This document shows positions 46,208 through 56,717 of a stretch of 64,000 nucleotides of DNA, piece by piece. Numbering within the stretch: the first letter of the stretch is position 1; each line of letters opens with the position of its first letter. Below the pieces are notes generated by a model, which had not been told where the DNA came from, made no database searches, and saw only the letters and a program-made list of their open reading frames with translations. This stretch comes from Planctomycetota bacterium. GTDB lineage: Bacteria > Planctomycetota > MHYJ01 > WSZJ01. The translations under genes and the position numbers were made by a program. The stretch spans positions 272,082 through 336,081 of the forward strand of contig JBBTCT010000009.1 in assembly GCA_038060895.1 (NCBI GenBank). Direction: 5' to 3'.

Positions 46208-46368
46208 TGTGGGAGGAAGTCTATAACAGGAGTGGAAGCGGAAAGCGAGGTGGAAGGGTTGGCCCGCAGGGCTGGCCAGTCCATTTCATCTCAGCTTTTC
46301 TGTGAACCTCATTCAAACCTCACGCGATCAAGGTGGTACAGCGCCGAAGTACGAAAGGACCTACTGTC

Positions 46369-47616
46369 ATGACATGCGACGCAACTCGTTCACAGCTAAC
46401 GGATTATGTTAAAAACGAGCTGACGAGAGCCGAAGCCGATGACGTCGCCGCTCACCTCAATACCTGCGAAAATTGCCGATCCAACGAGGCCGAAATTCGA
46501 AAGAATTTCGGCCTTCTTCGTTTGGCAACGGCTCCCAAGCCCCCCGACGCTCTCTGGGCCCGGATTTCCGCTTCTGTTGATGAGATCGAAGCCGGCAGGG
46601 GGCTGGAAGTGGCCGCAAGGCCAGCCGCGTGGGTCTGGCGGGGGATGGCCATCGCCGCGACCCTCCTCATTACCATCTCTGCCGTCATGCTGTTCAATCA
46701 CACCGGACGCCCCGATGCTCCGGCCGTTGCCCGCCTGGATCTGCTCGGACCGGGAGTCACGATTTACCGTATGACAGGTACGGACCGCCAGCCGATGAAA
46801 CAAGGCAGCACGCTGGCGCAAGGCGAGACACTCGTCATGGACCCAGGAGCGGCTGCAATTTTTACGATCCAGGGCGTCGGAAAGTTCAGGGTTGCGGGCG
46901 GCTCCACGCTTCGTATCACAGGCCCCCGCGCCATTCAGCTGGAAAAAGGCGAACTCATCGCCGACATCAACCCGGGCGGCAAAGGTTTTGAGATTTCGGC
47001 GCCGCAGGCAAGCGCCATCGTCCTCGGAACCCTCTTTCGCGTCAGCGCCGCCGGCGAGCGCACTTCGCTGACCGTCGCCCGGGGAAGCGTCAGATTCAGC
47101 AATTCATCCGGTGCCGTCGACGTGAAGGCCGGATATCAGTCGGCCGCGCTCGCAGGAAAGTCTCCCGCGGCCCCCCTTGAACTCGCCGCCGATGCCGCCG
47201 ACTGGGATCTCTTCCGGTCCGTCGCACCCGCCCCGCGCGTCGAACTCTCGATCGAAGCGGCGACCGCGGGAAAGCCGGTGCACTTCCAGATTACGCTCAG
47301 TTCCGACGCGCCGACGGACATCGAGGCGGGCGTCACGGAGCGCACCTACGTCATCCTCACGCTCGAAGACCCGACCGGCGCCCGCCGACTGGTCCGCCTT
47401 GCGGCCGGGGATCTCACCGCGTCCTGCGACGGGCAGGTCGTGAATGGCCTCGCTTCCATCGATCGCGAAAAGAGACTCGTCCTCAAGGGCGAATTGCGCG
47501 GGCTCGCCGCGGACGGAACGTGGCGCGTCAGCGCGCTCTTCGCCAGCGGCGGCCGCGAGGACTCGTGGGCCGGTTATTCCGAATCGCAGACCATGGCGAT
47601 CGAGGTGAAGCGGTGA
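46369..47616 (+). CDS. Zinc-finger anti-sigma factor with TM and FecR-like domain
   Basis: HLNTCENC (HxxxCxxC); TM MAIAATLLITISAVMLF; LEKGEL, IVLGTLFRV, VARGSVRF (FecR). Confidence 0.8.
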   Translation: MTCDATRSQLTDYVKNELTRAEADDVAAHLNTCENCRSNEAEIRKNFGLLRLATAPKPPDALWARISASVDEIEAGRGLEVAARPAAWVWRGMAIAATLLITISAVMLFNHTGRPDAPAVARLDLLGPGVTIYRMTGTDRQPMKQGSTLAQGETLVMDPGAAAIFTIQGVGKFRVAGGSTLRITGPRAIQLEKGELIADINPGGKGFEISAPQASAIVLGTLFRVSAAGERTSLTVARGSVRFSNSSGAVDVKAGYQSAALAGKSPAAPLELAADAADWDLFRSVAPAPRVELSIEAATAGKPVHFQITLSSDAPTDIEAGVTERTYVILTLEDPTGARRLVRLAAGDLTASCDGQVVNGLASIDREKRLVLKGELRGLAADGTWRVSALFASGGREDSWAGYSESQTMAIEVKR

Positions 47617-47683: not shown

Positions 47684-49795
47684 ATGGACCTGTCGCCAAT
47701 CCTGGGGAAGATCGAATCGGTTCGCGGCCGCGCGCGGCAGCTTGTGACGCTGGACGGCGCGTGCCGCGTGGCGCTCGTGGTGCTGGTCGCGGCGCTTTTC
47801 TCGTTCTGCATCGACTTTTTCATTCCGAAATTGCCGCTCGGCGTCCGCGCCACCGTCCTGATCGCCGGCCTCGCGGCGGCCGGGTTCGCGGCCTGGCGCT
47901 ACGTCGTCACGCCGCTCTCGGTCAAACTCTCGGATGACGACCTCGCGCTTTGCGTCGAGCAGCAGTTCCCCGACTTGCAGGACCGGCTGATCAGCGCGAT
48001 CCAGCTCAACCGGCAGCGCGGCGAATTCTCGCGCTTCAATTCGCCCGAACTCGTCGACGCCCTCGTGAAAGACGCCATGAACGAAGCGGCGCCCCTGGAC
48101 TTCTCGCCGGTGCTGCTCCCCGCGGGCCCGATGAAGATTGCAGCGGGGACGGCGGCGGCGGTTCTGGTAGCGGGAGCCTTGGCGATCTGGCAGTTCGATG
48201 CCGTGAAGACCTGGGCCGCGCGCCTCTTCAGCGATTCGGTTCAGTGGCCGAAGAAGACGCGGATCGTCGTGCTGGAGCCTTCGGGCAACCCCGTGACCGT
48301 GGCCAAGGGCGACGACCTGCGAGTCGAGGTCGAGACGCAGGGGTCCGTGCCCCGCAAGGCGCTGATTCACTATCGCTTCTCCGGCCAGGGTGAGCCGATC
48401 TCCCGGCCGATGCGCGCCGGTTCGAAGGGCAACTGGCTCTTCGATTTCTCGAAGGTCATCGAGCCGATGGAGTTCTGGATCGAGGCCGGCGACGACGAGA
48501 CGCTTCCCGTGACGGTGCAGGTGCTGAACCCGCCGACGGTCGAGCGGATCACGCTTCTCTATGACTACCCGGACTACACGCAGCTCAAGGACACGGACCC
48601 GTCGGCGCCGGTTGAGGACGGGAATATCGTGGCGCCGCCCGGGACGCACGTGACGGTGACGGCGCAGGCGAACCTCGACATTTCGAAGGCGAAGGCGGTG
48701 TTCGGGAGACGGGGCGAGGAAGACATGCGCGAGCTGGTGGTGAAGAACGACGCGCAGGGCCGGCCGCGGATGGTGGTGGCGGAGATCGACGTGCTGGCAA
48801 ACACGCAATACGCGATCTGGCTGCAGGCGACCAACGGGCTGCAGACGAATTCGCCGGTGCGGTACTCGATCAAGGCGATCGAGGACAGGCCGCCGGAAAT
48901 CAAGATCAGCGAGCCCAACCTCGACAAGTTCTGCACGGTGCAGGCCCGGATCCCGATCCGGTTTGCGACTTCGGACGACTTCGGCGTGATGAAGCTCGAA
49001 CTGATGATCAAGACCAACGACGCCAAGCGGCCCGAGCAGACCGTGGCCCTGGACGCGTTCAACACCGAGAGCTACCCGTCGAAGAAGATCGACACCGAGT
49101 ACTTCTTCGACATGACCGAGTTCGGCGCCAAGGAAGGCATGGTCATCCAGTACCAGATCGTCGCTCGCGACGGCCGCGAAATCCCGAAGGCGAACGAAAC
49201 GCGGTCGAGGCTCTTCCAGTTCACCGTGATCAAGCGCGACGACCTGCTGAAGAAGATGGAGGACCGCCTGGCTCGGATCCGCGAGGAACTGCAGCGCGTG
49301 ATCCAGTTCCAGGACGGCGGACGCGGGGAAGTGTCGCGCCTGATGGATGCGGTCGGTACGAAAGACATGCTCAGCGCGGTCGAGCGGCAGGCCGTCAACG
49401 GCGCCGCGGGGAACCAGCGCCGCATCACGCAGCACATGGAGCGCATCACGCACGAGTTCGACGAGATCGTCCGCGACATGCGCTACAACAAGCTCCTCGA
49501 GGGCGGCTCCGAAGCCCGCCTCAAGAAGCCCGGCGACCTGCTCCATGGCGTCACCGAGTACAAGTCGCCCGAAGTCGCGACGCTTCTCGGCTCCGCCGCC
49601 AGCGTCGGGCAGGCGAAAGATCGCATGAACAAATTGCAGGACACTTCCATTAAGCAGGAAGACATCCTCACCGACCTGACCACCGTCCTGGCTCTCCTGA
49701 CCGAGTACGAGACCTACCTGGAGGTTGTGCGCTACGTGCGCGAGCTGCTCCAGAAGGTCAAGGGGAACCTCGACGAAATGAGACGCACCAAGTAA
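47684..49795 (+). CDS. Membrane protein with Ig-like repeats and coiled coil (DUF4175-like)
   Basis: Three TM segments; VEQQFPDLQDRLISAIQL; YPDYT; DRPPEI; SDDFGV. Confidence 0.68.
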   Translation: MDLSPILGKIESVRGRARQLVTLDGACRVALVVLVAALFSFCIDFFIPKLPLGVRATVLIAGLAAAGFAAWRYVVTPLSVKLSDDDLALCVEQQFPDLQDRLISAIQLNRQRGEFSRFNSPELVDALVKDAMNEAAPLDFSPVLLPAGPMKIAAGTAAAVLVAGALAIWQFDAVKTWAARLFSDSVQWPKKTRIVVLEPSGNPVTVAKGDDLRVEVETQGSVPRKALIHYRFSGQGEPISRPMRAGSKGNWLFDFSKVIEPMEFWIEAGDDETLPVTVQVLNPPTVERITLLYDYPDYTQLKDTDPSAPVEDGNIVAPPGTHVTVTAQANLDISKAKAVFGRRGEEDMRELVVKNDAQGRPRMVVAEIDVLANTQYAIWLQATNGLQTNSPVRYSIKAIEDRPPEIKISEPNLDKFCTVQARIPIRFATSDDFGVMKLELMIKTNDAKRPEQTVALDAFNTESYPSKKIDTEYFFDMTEFGAKEGMVIQYQIVARDGREIPKANETRSRLFQFTVIKRDDLLKKMEDRLARIREELQRVIQFQDGGRGEVSRLMDAVGTKDMLSAVERQAVNGAAGNQRRITQHMERITHEFDEIVRDMRYNKLLEGGSEARLKKPGDLLHGVTEYKSPEVATLLGSAASVGQAKDRMNKLQDTSIKQEDILTDLTTVLALLTEYETYLEVVRYVRELLQKVKGNLDEMRRTK

Positions 49796-49823: not shown

Positions 49824-52814
49824 ATGCGCAGATTCGCCGGACTCATCAGCACGGGGCTCGCCCTGTGCGTTCTCGTCACCGCGCATCTGTACGCGGACGA
49901 CCAGGGCGGGAACGCCAATCGCGTCGTGCTCGAACGCGAGAAGGAGATCGAGAAGCGAGTTAACGACCTGAAGGACAAGATGAAGCGCGTCGCCGATGGG
50001 CTCCAGGAGAAAGAACCCGAGGCGGCCGCGCGGCTCTACGCCGCTGGCCAGGCACTCCAGGGATCGCTTCTTGAGGAAGACATCAGGAAGGTCATCGCCA
50101 ACATCGCCGAGGCCAAGATGGGAACGGCGATCGAGCAGCAGGAAGAGATCGTGAGCGACCTCCAGGTGATTCTCGACATTCTCGAGAACCGGAACAACGA
50201 GGGCGACCTGAAGAAGAAGCTCGAGGCGATCCGGAAATTGATCGCCGAGCTGAAAGGAATCCAGAAGGAACAGAACGACACCACCAAGAAGACCGAAGAG
50301 ATGAACAAAGAGCGGGAGCAGGACACCGCCGAGATGAAGGAGAAGCTCGACGCCGCGATCAAGGAACAGCAGGCGCTCGAGGACACGCTCAAACAAAATG
50401 ACACAGCCGGGATGGAAAAGGACATCGAGGCGGCGAAGAAGGAGCTCGAAGCGCTCAAGGCCGAGCAGGACAAGCTTCAGAACGAGACGAAGGACGCGCA
50501 GTCGAAGGAAGTGCGCGACCTGGCCGACGCGGTCAAGGGCCTGAAGGACGTCATCAAGAAACAGGAAGACGCGATTGCGAAGGCGAAGGCGTCCGCCGAA
50601 GGCGCGCAGACGACGAAGGAAGCGATCGAAGCCATCGAGAAGATCCAGAAAGAACAGGAAGCGATCCAGAAGCGCACGAAGGAAGCCGCCGACGAGGATT
50701 CAGCGCAGAAGATGGGTTCGATCCAGAAAGCGCAGGAGAAGAACTCGAAGGACACGGCGCGCGCCGGCGAGAAGCTGGACGGCATGCCGGAGACAAAGGG
50801 TTCGAACGAGGCGAAGAAGGCGCTCTCCGACGCGAAGAAGGCGATGGACCGGGCTGCCAAGGACCTCGAGGACGAGACGCCCGGCCTCGCGCAGCAGAAC
50901 GAGCAGAAGGCCTCCGACGCGCTCGAGAAGGCGAAGCAGGCCCTGAAGGACGAGATGGCCAATGCCGAGAAGAATCGCGAGCAGGATCTGGCCGACCAGG
51001 CCAAGGCGCAGGGCGATCTGAAGGAAGCGACGCAGAAGCTCGCCGACCAGATGTCCAAGGTCGGTGAGGAATCGGCCAGCAAGCCCACCAAGGACGCCCT
51101 CAAGGAAGCCGGCGAGAAGACCAAGGGTGCTTCCGGCGACATGAAGAAGGCCGAGCAGGAACTGGGCCAGAAGAACCCGTCGGGCGCCAAGTCGAACCAG
51201 GACCAGGCGCTCAGTTCGCTCAACCAGGCGAAGGAGAAGCTGGAGCAGCTCGAGGCCCAGCTTGCGCAGAAGGACGCCAAGGCGATGAGCGAGGTCGCCA
51301 AAAAGCAGCAGAACCTGCAGGACAAGGCGAACGAGCTGGCCAAGCAGCTGCACGAGATGGGGCAGAAGTCCGGCGAGAACGGCGACATGAAGAAGGCCGC
51401 GGACCAGGCTTCCAAGTCGACCAAGAGCGCCAGCCAGGAGATGGGCGACGCTTCCCAGAAGATGAGCGACGGCAAGTCGTCCGAGTCGCAGGACAACCAG
51501 CAGCAGGCGAGCAAAGATCTGCAGAAGGCCGCCGACGCGCTGGACAAGATGAAGAAGGCGCTGGCCGCTTCGAAGGAAGGCCAGGAAAAGAAGGCGAAGG
51601 AAGTCGCCGACAAGCAGGCTGAGCTCGAGAAGAAGATGAAGGACCTGGCCGAGAAGATGGAAGAAGTGGCCAAGAAGAACGCAGACAAGGATCCGCAGGG
51701 CGCCGCTTCGATGAGCAAAGCCGGCCAGAAGACCGACCAGGCTTCCGGCGAGATGAAGAAGGCCGGGAAGCAGATGGAGCAGAAGGACAACGAGAGCGCG
51801 CAGGCGAACCAGGCGCAGGCCAAGAAGGCGCTGGAAGAAGCCAAGAAGGAGCTGGAGAAGCTGAGCCAGCGCGAGTTGACGGAGGAGCAGAAGCGCCGGC
51901 TCGAGCAGTTGAAGGAACGTCAGCGGAAGATCGAAGAGCAGCTGAAAAAGATGCAGGAGAATGCTGCGAAGGTGCCGGAGAAGAAGTCGGCGGCGTCGCT
52001 CGGAGAGGCGTCGAAGTCGGCCGGGCAGACGGGGCAGAGCCAGCAGAAGCAGGATACGCAGAAGTCGCAGGAGGACAGCGAGAAGACGGAAGAAGACATG
52101 CAGAAGGCGCTGGAGGACCTGGAAGAAGCGGAGCGGCAGTACGCGCAGCAGCTGCAGGAAGAGCAGCTCCAGCAGATGGAGAACAAGCTGAGGGAGCTGG
52201 TGGAGAAGCAGCAGCGCATCAACGATGAAACGCGCCGGCTGGATGCGATCAAGGTGAAGGAGGGCGATCTCGACCGCAAAGGCCAGATGGATGTGCGCAA
52301 GATCAAGAACGAGCAGGAAGAGCTGAAGAAGCAGTCGGAGGAAGTCCGGGCCAAGACCGAGGAGGAGAAGTCGACTGTCGCGGAGTGGATCCTCGAGACG
52401 TGCCGTGACGACATGGGGGCCATCGCCGAGGAGCTCGGGAAGCAGGAAGTCGGCGAGTACACGCAGGAACTGCAGCTGGACGTGCTCACGCGGCTGAAGG
52501 AGCTCGTGCAGGCGCTCGAGAAGGAGCGCCAGCGCCGCAAGAAGAAGCAGCAGCAGCAGGGCGGAGGCGGCGGTGGCGGCGGGCCGCTGATCCCGGACGT
52601 GGCCGAGCTCAAGCTCCTGAAGACCATGCAGGTTTCGCTCAAGAAGAAGACGGAGCGCTTCTCGGCCGAATCGACGAAGGAAGCGCACAAGGAGCTGGAT
52701 CCCGTGCAGAAGGCCATTCTTGCCCGGCTCCGTGCGGAGCAGGGGCATATCGCTGAGCTCACCCGTGAATTCACGGACAAAATCAAAGAGAAAATGCAGG
52801 GAGGCGGGAAATAA
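49824..52814 (+). CDS. Exported very long coiled-coil protein (K/E/Q/A-rich repeats)
   Basis: Signal peptide ending LYA; about 900 aa of helical repeats (ASxxMxxAxxxL); QQQQGGGGGGGGPLIPDVAELKLLK near the C-terminus. Confidence 0.8.
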   Translation: MRRFAGLISTGLALCVLVTAHLYADDQGGNANRVVLEREKEIEKRVNDLKDKMKRVADGLQEKEPEAAARLYAAGQALQGSLLEEDIRKVIANIAEAKMGTAIEQQEEIVSDLQVILDILENRNNEGDLKKKLEAIRKLIAELKGIQKEQNDTTKKTEEMNKEREQDTAEMKEKLDAAIKEQQALEDTLKQNDTAGMEKDIEAAKKELEALKAEQDKLQNETKDAQSKEVRDLADAVKGLKDVIKKQEDAIAKAKASAEGAQTTKEAIEAIEKIQKEQEAIQKRTKEAADEDSAQKMGSIQKAQEKNSKDTARAGEKLDGMPETKGSNEAKKALSDAKKAMDRAAKDLEDETPGLAQQNEQKASDALEKAKQALKDEMANAEKNREQDLADQAKAQGDLKEATQKLADQMSKVGEESASKPTKDALKEAGEKTKGASGDMKKAEQELGQKNPSGAKSNQDQALSSLNQAKEKLEQLEAQLAQKDAKAMSEVAKKQQNLQDKANELAKQLHEMGQKSGENGDMKKAADQASKSTKSASQEMGDASQKMSDGKSSESQDNQQQASKDLQKAADALDKMKKALAASKEGQEKKAKEVADKQAELEKKMKDLAEKMEEVAKKNADKDPQGAASMSKAGQKTDQASGEMKKAGKQMEQKDNESAQANQAQAKKALEEAKKELEKLSQRELTEEQKRRLEQLKERQRKIEEQLKKMQENAAKVPEKKSAASLGEASKSAGQTGQSQQKQDTQKSQEDSEKTEEDMQKALEDLEEAERQYAQQLQEEQLQQMENKLRELVEKQQRINDETRRLDAIKVKEGDLDRKGQMDVRKIKNEQEELKKQSEEVRAKTEEEKSTVAEWILETCRDDMGAIAEELGKQEVGEYTQELQLDVLTRLKELVQALEKERQRRKKKQQQQGGGGGGGGPLIPDVAELKLLKTMQVSLKKKTERFSAESTKEAHKELDPVQKAILARLRAEQGHIAELTREFTDKIKEKMQGGGK

Positions 52815-52816
52815 CC

Positions 52817-53530
52817 ATGAACATCATCACGAACGTGCTGCGTTTCGCGACGGCCGGCGCCCTGGCGGCGGCCCTGATGGTCCCGGCGTGGGCGGACGAC
52901 GAGGAATTCCCGGACGGTCCCGCGGCGGAAGGCGAAGAGGCTCTTCCGGGCTCGGACGAGGAGGAGATGGAGGAGGCGGAGATCGACCCGCTGAAGACGC
53001 TCGACGAGATCATCTCGAAGATGAAGGACGCGGAGTCTTCCCTGGCCCAGGCGGGATCGTGGAAGGCGACCGACAAGCAGGGAAACGTCATCGAGGAGAT
53101 CGAGAAGCTGGTGAATGCAAAGGATCTGCAGGACAAGGCGATCCGCGAGATGGAGAAGATTTTCACCGGGTCGAAGGAAGGGCAGGGCCAGGCGGTCGAG
53201 GGGCTGGAGAAACTGATCAAGGCGGCGAAGGAGCAGGAGGGGCAGGGCGAGGGGAAAGAGCAGCAGAAGAAGAAAGAGCAGCAGCAGAAGCAGCCCGGGC
53301 AGCAGAAGCCGAACAAGCCGTCGAACCCGGCGCAGCAGCCCTACAATCCTTCCGGCAATCCGGAGACTGGCGCCCGCGAGCGGACAGGCGAATTGACCGA
53401 ACGGTGGGGAAGCCTTCCTGATAGACTGAGAGACGAAATCAGCCAGGCCGACGACGAGTTCAGGAGCACGAAAGGGACGTATCGCGAGAAGCTGATGGAG
53501 TACAGCCGGCTCCTCGGGGCGTCCGAATAA
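52817..53530 (+). CDS. Exported acidic helical protein (Cys-free paralog A)
   Basis: Signal peptide ending AWA; Q/K-rich linker; C-terminal WGSLPDRLRDE...YREKLMEY. Confidence 0.8.
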   Translation: MNIITNVLRFATAGALAAALMVPAWADDEEFPDGPAAEGEEALPGSDEEEMEEAEIDPLKTLDEIISKMKDAESSLAQAGSWKATDKQGNVIEEIEKLVNAKDLQDKAIREMEKIFTGSKEGQGQAVEGLEKLIKAAKEQEGQGEGKEQQKKKEQQQKQPGQQKPNKPSNPAQQPYNPSGNPETGARERTGELTERWGSLPDRLRDEISQADDEFRSTKGTYREKLMEYSRLLGASE

Positions 53531-53588
53531 TAGAGTGAACGAGGTGCACCCGTCGGGCGTCTAACCAGCAGGAATCGGAGGAACGACC

Positions 53589-54290
53589 ATGAGATGGAAC
53601 CTGGTGCTGAGCGGAGTCCTTTCGCTGGGATTGTCGTTCCCGGCCTTTGCGGACCCCGGAGAGGAATTCCCGGAGGGGCCGAAGGGTGAAGAAGAGGCGC
53701 TGCCGGGAAGTGACGAAGAGGAGATGGAAGAGGAACAAATCGATGTGCTGGGCACGCTGGAGACGATCGTCGGCGATATGAAGGATGCTGAAAAGAGCCT
53801 CGCCGACATCAACGGCTGGAAGGCGACGGATGCGCAGGGCAACGCGATCGACGACGTGAAGCGACTGATCGACGCCCAGGACCTGCAGAAGAAGGCGATC
53901 GACGACATGTCCCGTATCTTCGAAGGCGGCAAGAACGAGCAGGAAGCCGCTGTCCAGGGCCTCGAAAAGCTGATCAAGGCCGCGAAGGAAGGCGACTGAG
54001 GGGGCAGCTGCTCCGACAAGAAAACCTCCCAGGCTGGGAGCAAGCAGAAGACGCCGAAGAATGCGAATCCCAAGACTGCCAGCAATCCTGCGACCGCGCC
54101 CTACAACCCGAGCGGATCGCACGACGACACGCCGCTGGTCGACCGCACTTCAGAACTCAAGGATCGCTGGGGAAACCTGCCCGATCGCCTCCGCGACGAG
54201 CTCAGCCAGGCCGACGATGACTTCCGCAACGTCAAGGGCGACTACCGCGAGAAGCTTCTCGAGTACTCGAAGATGTTGAGCCAGGAGTAG
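53589..54290 (+). CDS. Paralog B of the preceding gene with an in-frame TGA at codon 137 (putative selenoprotein, 233 aa)
   Basis: After AAKEGD-TGA the frame continues GGSCSDKK...PYNPSG...WGNLPDRLRDELSQADDDFRNVKGDYREKLLEYSKMLSQE-TAG, collinear with paralog A. Confidence 0.72.
54026..54040 (+). promoter_or_regulatory. Candidate SECIS hairpin
   Basis: CUCCC-AGGCU-GGGAG at +27..+41 after the UGA; no equivalent in paralog A. Confidence 0.5.
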
Positions 54291-54311: not shown

Positions 54312-54348
54312 GCCCGCGCGGATCCTTCGGGACTGCGCGGGCTTTTTT
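54312..54348 (+). terminator. Intrinsic terminator
   Basis: GCCCGCGCGG...TTCG...CTGCGCGGGC followed by T6, 21 nt after TAG 54290. Confidence 0.85.
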
Positions 54349-54374: not shown

Positions 54375-55454
54375 GTGTCCCTCTTCGATCGCCGCAGCTT
54401 CCTCACCCGCTCCCTTGGACTCGCCGCCCTGCCGTTCGCGGGGGCCGCTTCACGCGCCCTCGGCGAAGACAAGCCGGCCGAGCCGCCGCCGGTTGAGCGC
54501 AAGAACCTGATCACCGAAGGGCAGATTGCGGCGACGCGGAAGGGGCTGGAGTACCTGCGGAAGGTGCAGGACAGCAAGAAGGGCTCGTGGGGAGGAAGCG
54601 TGCAGGTCGCGGTGACGTCGCTGGCCGGGTGTGCGTTTCTGGCGGAGGGGCACCAACCGGGGCGCGGCAAGTACGGCGAATGTGTGCAGAAGGCGATCAA
54701 TTACATCCTGAACTGCAGCAAGAGTTCGCGTAAGGGATACATCTCGGAGCCGGCGGGGGACCAGTCGCGGATGCACGGCCATGGGTTCGCGTCGATGTTC
54801 CTGGGTGAGGCTTACGGGATGATGAAGATGGACGACGACACCCGGACGAAGATGGAGAGCGCGATCAAGAAGGCGGTCGGGATCATCGCCTACTCTCAGA
54901 CGCAACTCGGCGGATGGGGATATGTGCCGGAGCCGACCTACGACGAGGGCTCGGTCACGGTGGCGGAAGTCATGGCGCTCCGCTCCTGCCGCAATGCCGG
55001 CTTCCAGGTCGACAAGAAAGTGATCGAGAAGGGCATCGGGTACCTCAAGAAGTCGGCCAACCCGGACGGTTCGTTCAAGTACTCCCTTCAGGGAGGAGGC
55101 GGTGGCGGCACGTTCCCGCTCACGGCGGGCGCCGTGGCCTCGATGCAGCTCTTCGGCGAATACGAAGCCAAGGAAGTCAAGAAGGGGCTGGAGTTCCTGA
55201 AGAAGAACCGGCAGAACCAGGTCGGCGGGAACTGGGGCCACAAGTTCTACGGCAACCTGTACTCGACGATGGCGGCGTACTACGCGGGAGGGCAGTTCTG
55301 GGAGGACTGGTTCCCGACGATGCGGGACGAGTACATCAAGACGCAGCAGGGGGACGGCTCCTGGCAGGGAGAATACGACGGCACGTACTGCACCGCGTTC
55401 GCGGTCCTGACGCTGGCCGTTCCTTACCAGTACCTCCCAATTTTTCAGGCTTGA
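54375..55454 (+). CDS. Tat-exported prenyltransferase/squalene-oxidase-repeat protein
   Basis: Twin-arginine DRRSFL; QDSKKGSW, MHGHGFA, GGWGY, NPDGSFKY, QQGDGSW, LPIFQ. Confidence 0.82.
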   Translation: MSLFDRRSFLTRSLGLAALPFAGAASRALGEDKPAEPPPVERKNLITEGQIAATRKGLEYLRKVQDSKKGSWGGSVQVAVTSLAGCAFLAEGHQPGRGKYGECVQKAINYILNCSKSSRKGYISEPAGDQSRMHGHGFASMFLGEAYGMMKMDDDTRTKMESAIKKAVGIIAYSQTQLGGWGYVPEPTYDEGSVTVAEVMALRSCRNAGFQVDKKVIEKGIGYLKKSANPDGSFKYSLQGGGGGGTFPLTAGAVASMQLFGEYEAKEVKKGLEFLKKNRQNQVGGNWGHKFYGNLYSTMAAYYAGGQFWEDWFPTMRDEYIKTQQGDGSWQGEYDGTYCTAFAVLTLAVPYQYLPIFQA

Positions 55455-55475: not shown

Positions 55476-56717
55476 ATGCTTCCAGCCCGGAGCCTTCTGC
55501 TGTTGTTCCTGGGCGCCTCCTTTGTTTGCGCCGATCCACCGGACCCCGCGAAGGCTCCTTACCCGGCGCGGCGCGAGAGGCTGCAGAAGCACCTGGGAAA
55601 AGGGCTGGCACTTGTGCCGGCGGCTCCCGCCGCGGAGCACTTCCGCCAGGACAATGACTTCTGGTACCTGACCGGGCTTGACTGGCCCGACGCTGTCCTT
55701 GCCATGACCAGGGAGGGGGCGTGGCTCTTCGAAGGAGACGGCACGCGGGCGGCACCGGAAGGCTTCGCGGAAGTCACCCCTGTCAGTCAGCTGAAACTCG
55801 CTGCGGGACGGTACTTCACGGAGGGGCTCTGGATGCCGGGAGGCCGCTACGAGTTCTACTCGACGTTCAACTCGCCGGGCGAGAAGCGGGAGTTCGGCGA
55901 TCCTTTTGGCCAGTCGGAATGGCGCGAGGGCTGGGTGCGGAAGATGAAAGAGAAGCTGGACTATCCGGACGTGCAGGGGCTGGAGTCGCGGCTGGCGCGA
56001 ATGCGGCTGGTGAAAGACGACGTGGAACTGGGGCTCCTGCGACAGGCGCTCAAGATCACGGGGGATTCCCTGATAGCGGCGATGGCGAAGGCGACTCCCG
56101 GGATGAAGGAACGGGAATTCCAGGTGTTGCTGGAGCAGGGATACCTGGACGGGGGAGCGGAGTGGCTTGCGTTTCCGTCCATTGTCGGAAGCGGAATGAA
56201 CGGGACCATGGTGCACTACACGGAAAACGGGGAGCAGCTGGACCGGAACGAGCTGGTCGTGGTGGACACGGGGGCGGAGTTCGGCATGTATGCCGCCGAT
56301 GTGACGCGGACATTTCCTGCTTCCGGCAAATTTACGAAGCGGCAGCGTGAGGTCTACGAAGCGGTGCTGGCCGCGCAAAAGGCGGGGATTGCGGCGATCA
56401 AACCAGGCACGACACTCTTGCAAGTGGACGCCGTGGCCCGCCGGACACTGGACGATCTCGGGTTTGCCGGAAAGATGCCGCATTTGACGGGGCACTGGGT
56501 GGGGATGCAGGTCCATGACGTCGGGAGTTACGCGACGCGGCTGGAGCCGGGAATGGTCGTCACCGTCGAACCGGGCGTGTACCTCGCGGACGAAGGAATC
56601 GGCGTCCGGATCGAGGACGTGTTCGTGGTGACGAAGGACGGCGCGGAGAATCTCTCGGCGTGGATCCCGAAGTCCATCGACGAAATTGAAAAACTCGCGG
56701 GCTCAGCCGTAAAGTGA
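55476..56717 (+). CDS. Xaa-Pro aminopeptidase (M24B)
   Basis: FRQDNDFWYLTG, VDTGAEFGMYAADVTRT, GHWVGMQVHD, TVEPGVY, GVRIED; signal-like N-terminus. Confidence 0.92.
   Translation: MLPARSLLLLFLGASFVCADPPDPAKAPYPARRERLQKHLGKGLALVPAAPAAEHFRQDNDFWYLTGLDWPDAVLAMTREGAWLFEGDGTRAAPEGFAEVTPVSQLKLAAGRYFTEGLWMPGGRYEFYSTFNSPGEKREFGDPFGQSEWREGWVRKMKEKLDYPDVQGLESRLARMRLVKDDVELGLLRQALKITGDSLIAAMAKATPGMKEREFQVLLEQGYLDGGAEWLAFPSIVGSGMNGTMVHYTENGEQLDRNELVVVDTGAEFGMYAADVTRTFPASGKFTKRQREVYEAVLAAQKAGIAAIKPGTTLLQVDAVARRTLDDLGFAGKMPHLTGHWVGMQVHDVGSYATRLEPGMVVTVEPGVYLADEGIGVRIEDVFVVTKDGAENLSAWIPKSIDEIEKLAGSAVK

Follow-up and report, generated by a model that had tools for sequence, protein, structure and literature searches.

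An in-frame TGA at a helix-linker junction marks a probable selenoprotein family of Planctomycetota

Does the TGA that closes a short open reading frame (ORF) in a planctomycetal genome end the gene, or does it encode selenocysteine (Sec, U)? We addressed this question in the window, a stretch of 64,000 nucleotides (nt) from a Planctomycetota bacterium (GenBank assembly GCA_038060895.1, contig JBBTCT010000009.1, positions 272,082 to 336,081 of the forward strand; all positions below are those of the window), where 2 paralogous genes, here called A and B, stand in tandem and gene B runs into a TGA at 53997-53999. The evidence makes it very probable that gene B is a genuine selenoprotein gene, with its UGA read as Sec under the direction of a downstream hairpin and its product an exported 233-aa member of a Planctomycetota-wide family. 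A sequence-only reading of the same DNA had earlier proposed such a selenoprotein, with a recent nonsense mutation as the alternative.

Reading frame, paralog, and predicted product of gene B

The ORF of gene B (53589..53999, plus strand) starts with ATG and reaches the TGA after 136 codons, but the frame stays open for 96 more codons up to a TAG at 54288-54290, as the sequence-only reading had pointed out. With the TGA read as U, the product has 233 aa. The features of the pair are as follows.

52817..53530, plus strand: paralog A, 237 aa, with linker QEGQGEG and without cysteine (Cys) or Sec (ORF, alignment)
53577..53581, plus strand: ribosome-binding site GGAGG, 7 nt before the ATG of gene B (by eye)
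53589..54290, plus strand: gene B read through, putative 233-aa selenoprotein (U137), TAG included (frame, homology to A, TGA column, substitution rates)
53589..53651, plus strand: predicted Sec-type signal peptide MRWNLVLSGVLSLGLSFPAFA / DPGEE (sequence pattern only)
53715..53990, plus strand: predicted helical hairpin domain, about residues 43-134 (low-confidence AlphaFold2 model, helices 43-74 and 83-134)
53997..53999, plus strand: TGA, putative U137, right behind the last helix (column conserved; Cys codon TGC at that column in homologs)
54009..54011, plus strand: TGC, Cys141, sole Cys of B (second motif position kept as C or U in homologs)
54000..54287, plus strand: tail after the UGA, a disordered K/Q/P-rich linker followed by the C-terminal module PYNPSG ... 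RWGNLPDRLRDE ... YREKLLEYSK (homology, substitution rates)
54312..54348, plus strand: intrinsic terminator, stem-loop with U6, past the TAG (free energy -30.5 kcal/mol, z -2.6)

Paralog A and read-through B were 57% identical over their full length (E 2e-80), signal peptide and last helix included. The tail had been described as collinear with the C-terminus of A, and this held when the 96 residues were compared alone (67% identity over 66 aa, E 3e-30). We estimated the chance of a 96-codon open frame at about 62% G+C at roughly 6%, which is not rare, so the tail goes beyond chance because it is homologous to A and not because its frame is open. Within the tail module, W194, G195, L197, R202, P171, and Y172 were invariant in 18 sequences. 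The translations also bear out that A lacks Cys and that the TGA of B stands 4 residues before its only Cys, in the motif D-U-G-G-S-C with C141 as the likely partner of U137. The terminator lies after the TAG rather than the TGA, as the same reading had it; a simple pattern scan for terminators did not flag this stem-loop, which we attribute to the 3-8 nt loop limit of that scan. No in-frame start codon followed the TGA in any of 5 sequences of the genus. The signal-peptide-like N-terminus of B suggests that the product is exported, and most homologs carry a hydrophobic N-terminus ending in A-x-A. The secondary structure of B was predicted, at low confidence, as all helical with disorder.

Conservation of the TGA across Planctomycetota

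We searched the read-through protein against 61 related genomes, with stops read through and counted, and obtained matches in 44; the class is represented by 56 genomes in our collection, 47 of which had the family at E <=1e-8. A family profile was further searched against 401 sampled genomes of the phylum, with matches in 171 that mostly spanned only the C-terminal half of the profile, inside longer proteins; TGA figures from outside the class are given among the matches listed. One or two in-frame TGAs were identified in 15 of the 47 genomes, including the window's own (G000), 3 congeners at 84, 71, and 67% identity, and 11 genomes from other families at 25-36%. When 52 homologs were aligned with MAFFT, all in-class TGAs fell in one column, directly behind a helix ending in ...KLIKAAK. 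The motifs that start there were U-GGSC, U-GSSC, UGSGSCRSC, UGGSSCKSC, UASSSCRPC, UGGGGC, UPDSDCSSC, UGGNGC, and USSGC, along with the two-Sec motifs UGGGSU and UQGGSU in 2 in-class genomes. Three homologs had Cys, encoded by TGC, at the TGA column (CGGGSC in G034, CANGAC in G030, and CQGSGSC in G054), and the remaining 34 of the 52 rows had a Gln/Gly/Ser-rich linker without Cys at the site, a class that includes G024, counted as having none though a Cys cluster stands a few residues past the site.

Outside the class, 11 genomes among the matches listed had an in-frame TGA, each at the same helix-linker junction, with motifs such as UDSGSU, UEGGSU, USGDGC, CUNGSG, TUSGS, GUNGSG, and GGGGGGUGGGG, and 2 further homologs had Cys at the junction. 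In the last of these motifs, from G433, the putative Sec has no Cys nearby. A metagenome scan contributed a single locus, with an alignment of 4 rows. The sequence-only reading had proposed that related genomes be tabulated for TGA or Cys at the aligned site, and the TGA in 15 in-class and 11 out-of-class genomes among the matches listed, with Cys in several, came out in its favor. The TGA is almost certainly a Sec codon conserved across many Planctomycetota, and the same junction appears, family-wide, as U-x3/4-C, U-x4-U, U alone, C-x3/4-C, or nothing. Two in-frame TGAs 5 codons apart (U-x4-U) were observed at 4 loci, L042, L050, L091, and L093 (G038, G042, G173, and G395, respectively).

The same column can be recognized in protein databases. 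A collection of 5.8 billion proteins held 30 relatives at E <=1e-5, and every name given was "hypothetical protein"; 14 of them, the window's own included, were 136-137 aa long, covered the first 45-58% of the query, and stopped at one alignment column, ...KLIK[A/L]AKE[G/S][D/S]. A full-length relative (P0002, 64% identical) had C-QGS-C in place of the U-GGS-C of B. Searched with the profile, 1.84 billion cluster representatives yielded 2142 proteins at E <=1e-3 and 181 at <=1e-10. Among the best 150 of the 2142, 29 stopped within 4 residues of the site, 19 were full-length with Cys at the site (7 with 2 or more Cys), 68 were full-length without Cys, 9 were C-terminal pieces only, and 25 were partial or other (6 of these also with C-x4-C-like motifs). 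Public annotation cuts genes of this family at the TGA, leaving 14 close relatives as 136-137-aa hypothetical proteins and 29 of the best 150 representatives ending at the site. The named records all came from uncultured metagenome-assembled genomes labelled Planctomycetota, Planctomycetia, or Candidatus Brocadiia.

Selection on the tail

We compared nonsynonymous and synonymous substitution rates (dN/dS, by Nei-Gojobori) among 5 sequences of the genus, 4 from genomes and 1 from the metagenome locus L060, all with the TGA. Downstream of the TGA, dN/dS was 0.10-0.32 at dS 0.6-1.2 in 9 of 10 pairs; the tenth pair (G002/L060) was nearly identical there, with 0 nonsynonymous and 4 synonymous differences. 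Upstream values were 0.02-0.40, so that dN/dS was as low after the TGA as before it, the comparison that the sequence-only reading had suggested. No stop and no frameshift was found in the tail of any of the 5 sequences. Given the low dN/dS and the intact frame, the tail continues the reading frame of the part before the TGA and is kept by purifying selection. That the UGA is translated and its site interchangeable with Cys is strongly supported by these comparisons.

Candidate Sec insertion hairpin

Bacterial selenocysteine insertion sequences (bSECIS) have, in the consensus given in a 2026 review (PMC13188914), a loop of 3-9 nt, a stem of >=4 bp, a G in the first 2 loop positions, a distance of 16-37 nt from the UGA, and a folding energy of <=-7.5 kcal/mol. 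The gene B candidate is the following.

54026..54040, plus strand: candidate bSECIS hairpin CUCCC-AGGCU-GGGAG, with a stem of 6 bp and the apical loop GGC, which starts 32 nt past the UGA

Throughout the genus, the hairpin stands 29-32 nt after the UGA with an invariant loop, and 3 of 7 pair positions of the stem change on both sides among 4 species. One pair is C-G in G000 and G001 and U-A in G002 and G006, a second is U-A in G006 only, and the outermost is G-C, C-G, or G-C in 3 species and unpaired in G000. Some of these changes alter amino acids (S-Q-A-G-S, S-Q-A-G-N, S-Q-A-E-K) with helix pairing kept. Covariation of this kind had been suggested as a check, and compensatory changes are indeed seen within the genus; the hairpin had also been claimed for B only, and A has none at the aligned position.

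Of the 15 in-class TGAs, 8 passed a scan by the PMC13188914 criteria, restricted to contiguous stems, as did 9 of the 11 out-of-class TGAs among the matches listed, together 17 of 26. The scan was passed by 1 of 3 Cys homologs and, at the aligned position, by none of the 34 Sec-less homologs, 28 of which had no candidate hairpin at all. The scan loops were GGC, GUG, CGUGCC, CGUGUC, GAAU, AGUC, GUA, CGUGC, GGUC, GUU, and AGUUC. Rfam gave nothing relevant in the region. These results support decoding by the Sec system, apparently guided by the downstream hairpin.

Some minor observations belong here. In G042, one hairpin lies within 16-37 nt of both Sec codons. The Cys form CANGAC of G030 (L032) is followed at the right spacing by a SECIS-like hairpin, GCCCC-AGUC-GGGGC, the same as that after the 2 Sec codons of G042; because the Cys form retains this identical hairpin, a recent change from Sec to Cys in G030 is suggested. 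On the minus strand, where a T-rich run follows it, the hairpin at 54026-54040 was flagged by a simple scan as terminator-like; we rejected this reading, since the hairpin is part of a conserved coding frame and no minus-strand gene with support has its end at this place.

Sec machinery and independent support for the TGA

The sequence-only reading required a complete Sec machinery, and the window's genome (5.4 Mb, 47 contigs, 86.5% complete) has it: a tRNA-Sec (71.7 bits; ARAGORN call SeC(tca)) and matches over cut-off to selB (344 bits), selA (541 bits), and selD (364 bits). TGA is otherwise an ordinary stop in this genome, ending the Pfam-supported genes 46333-47616, 54375-55454, and 55476-56717. 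The selA gene was identified in 14 of 15 in-class and all 11 out-of-class TGA genomes; it was not found in 2 Cys-form genomes, G034 and G101. Sec use looks very common in Planctomycetota, with selA in 173 of 243 good-quality genomes of the phylum sample.

Support for the TGA at 53997, also named earlier as a check, came from independent contigs. A DNA contig of another study is identical to 53529-54116, TGA included, and contigs from 3 metatranscriptome libraries of one study (53894-54279, 53659-54161, and 53896-54148) all bridge the TGA unchanged.

Within the full-length match of the genome's own selD (contig C2:48628-49548, locus L018, in G000), 1 in-frame TGA was observed, and the selenophosphate synthetase would on this basis itself be a selenoprotein here.

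Gene neighborhood and proposed function

Genes A and B belong to a cluster with the following other members.

46333..47616, plus strand: zf-HC2 and FecR anti-sigma-like protein, first gene of the cluster (Pfam)
47684..49795, plus strand: DUF4175 protein (PF13779, 28.9 bits against a cut-off of 27.3; Pfam)
49824..52814, plus strand: 996-aa K/E/Q-rich coiled-coil protein (ORF; C-terminal ~200 aa conserved beside A/B)
54375..55454, plus strand: exported alpha/alpha-toroid (prenyltransferase / squalene-cyclase-like) protein with an RRSFL twin-arginine-like N-terminus (Pfam, neighborhood)

The order anti-sigma, DUF4175, coiled coil, A/B was also found in G002, G012, G038, and G050, and in part in G025, G015, and G009; outside the class, pieces of the cluster lie near TGA genes in G355, G395, G127, and G433. 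Only the last ~200 residues of the coiled-coil protein are conserved in the class, and this C-terminal part stands beside A/B in 38 of 40 in-class loci, with the toroid gene downstream of A/B in 15 of the 40. In the window, the 996-aa protein is nearly all K/E/Q/A-rich coiled coil and has a run of 8 Gly near its end. Outside the class, the module (helix, U/C junction, Gly/Ser linker, WGxLP...Y..L..YYK.L) forms the C-terminus of larger exported proteins, one with HEAT repeats (92 bits) and others with weak TPR-like matches.

In the mechanism that we propose, SelA, SelB, SelD, and tRNA-Sec would decode the UGA at 53997-53999, directed by the small hairpin about 30 nt downstream (54026-54040). 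The product would be laid out as a signal peptide, an acidic stretch, a helical hairpin, Sec at the helix end with Cys 4 residues on, a flexible linker, and a C-terminal helical module, which would put Sec in the C-cap position of a long helix, where a flexible arm begins. The selenol and its partner thiol, 4-5 residues on, might form a reversible selenenylsulfide (a diselenide in U-x4-U forms) or bind a soft metal. Our best guess is that a flexible linker carries a selenol/thiol pair that acts in the periplasm as a redox or metal switch, which may serve the cluster of FecR-type anti-sigma, DUF4175, coiled-coil, A, B, and alpha/alpha-toroid proteins. Some forms hold a lone Sec, which suggests an intermolecular partner in some lineages, and a link to envelope signalling is suggested because the first gene is anti-sigma-like. 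Under limiting selenium, translation of B would stop at the UGA and leave a 136-aa product without the C-terminal module, with paralog A unaffected.

We regard as speculative, and on balance unlikely, the broader idea of a phylum-wide envelope system in which a selenol on a periplasmic tether acts as a non-enzymatic structural or signalling selenoprotein beside its selenium-independent twin and reads redox, soft metal, or selenium supply to a sigma factor. If true, the Sec/Sec-less pair would let the cell pass its periplasmic redox state, soft-metal load, or selenium supply to that factor.

Counter-evidence and alternative explanations

Several results weigh against the interpretation of gene B as a hairpin-directed selenoprotein or against the switch proposed for it. 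The hairpin of B, at -7.3 kcal/mol, just missed the cut-off of -7.5, and the 60 nt past the UGA of B showed no folding advantage over shuffled sequence (z +0.30). Over the family, folding z-scores separate only weakly (mean -0.82 in 15 in-class genes vs -0.09 in Sec-less ones, p 0.04), and the strict scan was failed by 7 of 15 in-class and 2 of 11 out-of-class TGAs and passed by 1 Cys homolog. On the family-profile alignment of 230 columns, all 15 in-class TGAs stood at column 131 with the second Sec at 136, and the out-of-class TGAs among the matches listed stood at columns 131 (6), 136 (3), and 139 (2), but the exact column is softer than these figures because U was replaced by C before alignment and so drawn to conserved Cys columns. 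The genome counts overstate independence because related genomes are kin. Co-occurrence with selA is weak evidence because 290 of the 401 genomes sampled from the phylum (72%) have this gene; selA was not found in G044, an 87% complete genome with the TGA form. Contigs from RNA libraries are no proof of transcription because DNA can occur in such libraries. On the functional side, read-through B had no Pfam domain over cut-off and no recognizable redox fold or cofactor site, its structure model was poor (predicted local distance difference test 53, predicted template modelling score 0.21, AlphaFold2 with an 18-row alignment), and the variants with Sec and no nearby Cys misfit a simple intramolecular selenenylsulfide.

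Among the alternatives, the UGA might be read through without Sec, by near-cognate insertion of Trp or Cys or by a suppressor tRNA. This would suit the comparative data, which show a translated codon interchangeable with Cys and not the identity of the residue, and the thermodynamically unremarkable hairpin of gene B. It is nevertheless improbable in view of the complete Sec machinery of the genome, the presence of selA in 25 of 26 TGA genomes, and the hairpins with G[G/U] loops at 16-37 nt, which follow TGAs but not the corresponding sites in homologs without Sec. According to PMC13188914, selenoprotein families are defined by the signature of UGA alternating with UGC at a C-x4-C site. In the window's genome, moreover, TGA ends ordinary genes.

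A second alternative accepts Sec insertion and takes the UGA chiefly as a selenium-dependent translational gate, whose default product would be the 136-aa form and whose purpose would be to couple the C-terminal module to selenium supply rather than to provide selenol chemistry. Bacterial Sec insertion competes with termination, the Sec-independent paralog A is usually kept beside B, and members such as GGGGGGUGGGG in G433 have Sec without a nearby Cys, all of which such a gate would accommodate. Cys forms that keep the spacing, as C-x3/4-C, are common, however, and two-Sec forms (U-x4-U) occur in G038, G042, G173, and G395; because of both, selection appears to act on side-chain chemistry rather than on the stop, and we give the gate little credence.

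The weakest alternative, a recent nonsense mutation or assembly error that would make B a decaying pseudogene copy of A, takes its appeal from the single in-frame TGA in 1 of 2 tandem paralogs, which looks like a fresh mutation, and from the B copy of congener G003, without the motif and on a long branch of 0.9, but is practically negligible given the TGA at one column in 15 genomes of the class and near it in 11 others among the matches listed, the undamaged frame of a tail with dN/dS of 0.10-0.32 at dS 0.6-1.2 in 9 of 10 pairs, the 14 database proteins (the window's own included) that end at the same column, and the same TGA in an independent DNA run and in RNA-library contigs. A shared contaminating contig is excluded because the related sequences are 65-85% identical. 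The conserved TGA column and the selected tail thus dispose of the nonsense mutation that the sequence-only reading had kept as its alternative, and the reading of gene B as a selenoprotein stands.

Comparison with known selenoproteins

The sequence-only reading had known of no selenoprotein family like B, and we found no described family that fits. The read-through protein (P0001) matched no family of NCBIfam release 20 at E up to 1, and no fitting entry stood among the 119 prokaryotic selenoprotein families in Table 1 of the 2026 review (PMC13188914). A term search for Planctomycetes found no mention in PMC13188914, the deep-Sep and BSepDB papers, or a 2016 ISME J survey, with the supplementary lists of BSepDB and deep-Sep outside that search. 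Literature on selenoproteins or selenocysteine in Planctomycetes yielded 1 relevant paper, a 2016 genome study (PMC4807772) in which the families named are known ones, fdhA and fmdB among them, with Table S9 outside our view. A literature search for DUF4175 returned nothing useful, and a protein-cluster look-up of paralog A returned solely "hypothetical protein, Planctomycetota" clusters. Within these limits, the family is undescribed, though supplementary lists could name it otherwise.

The recoding mechanism is known; the protein is new to the class and atypical of it, and is the first example of a Planctomycetota-wide family. With bacterial selenoproteins that use UGA and an in-frame SECIS (Zhang and Gladyshev, via PMC13188914), it shares the UGA, a Cys homolog at the same column, a small candidate hairpin whose apical loop begins with G[G/U] at 16-37 nt downstream, and selA, selB, selC, and selD. 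Unlike them, B has no thioredoxin-like or other recognized redox fold, and its predicted Sec stands at a helix end before a Gly/Ser-rich disordered linker in an exported, mostly helical protein. At the motif level only, its U-G-G-S-C resembles the UGSC of the UGSC-containing protein (NF041046), and the U-x4-U of some relatives resembles the UxxxxU of TsoB (NF045694); neither model, if part of NCBIfam release 20, matched B in the scan of that release. The helical part of B has a weak similarity to DUF4175 (PF13779) below the gathering cut-off of 27.3 (13.8 bits, and 15.7 bits for A), and a true DUF4175 gene lies 2 genes upstream of the A/B pair; unlike DUF4175, the C-terminal WGxLP module of B falls outside every Pfam model.

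Most known selenoproteins are redox enzymes. In mammalian thioredoxin reductase, the C-terminal GCUG forms a Sec/Cys redox centre on a flexible arm, and like B it carries selenol and thiol groups close together in the chain, on a glycine-rich segment that is mobile; GCUG, however, serves a flavoenzyme and has Sec and Cys adjacent, whereas B has no catalytic domain, is predicted to be periplasmic, and has x3-x4 spacing. The family, absent from the scanned NCBIfam and Pfam and from the 2026 catalogue (PMC13188914, Table 1), would add to the bacterial selenoproteome an unusual type, in which an exported protein of helices and disorder bears Sec where helix and linker meet. With Sec, Cys, or neither at one site and a Sec-less twin adjacent, it offers a natural comparison set that is useful for the question of Sec versus Cys, and it singles out a conserved envelope gene cluster as one with a probable chalcogen or redox link.

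Evolution of the tandem pair

The adjacency of Sec-free and Sec-containing versions, noted earlier for the window, recurs in other genera, where the Sec-less paralog usually lies directly upstream of the Sec copy. Among 51 homologs placed on a tree, the two copies from a genome, one with Sec/Cys and one Sec-less, were sisters in G042 (support 90), G025 (97), and G050 (99), and in the window's genus Sec copies and Sec-less copies formed separate subclades within one clade. The junction trait changed at least 11 times on the tree, at least 7 of them on well-supported branches. Because of these sister pairs and repeated trait changes, the tandem pair would either evolve in concert or have arisen repeatedly, with the junction difference kept, and we read this as selection for having both Sec/Cys and Sec-less forms. 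Complex prediction for the helical domains of A and B gave a score of 0.01, which says nothing either way.

Long identical stretches between tandem copies, with a differing junction motif, were observed at L039, L050, L051, and L040 (G025, G042, G050, and G054, respectively) and at 52817-54290 of the window, and look like concerted evolution in which the motif is protected. At 1 out-of-class locus (L092, G303), the protein occurs in a longer version (~350 aa), again as a Sec form (USGDGC) with a Sec-less paralog, and the pairing is for this reason not restricted to the short protein form. A B-type copy without Sec and Cys was found in the congener G003 (L025, 781-1383; long branch of 0.9) and in 3 database clusters (P0018-P0020), with the linkers SESSSTSSA / DSESSATAD.

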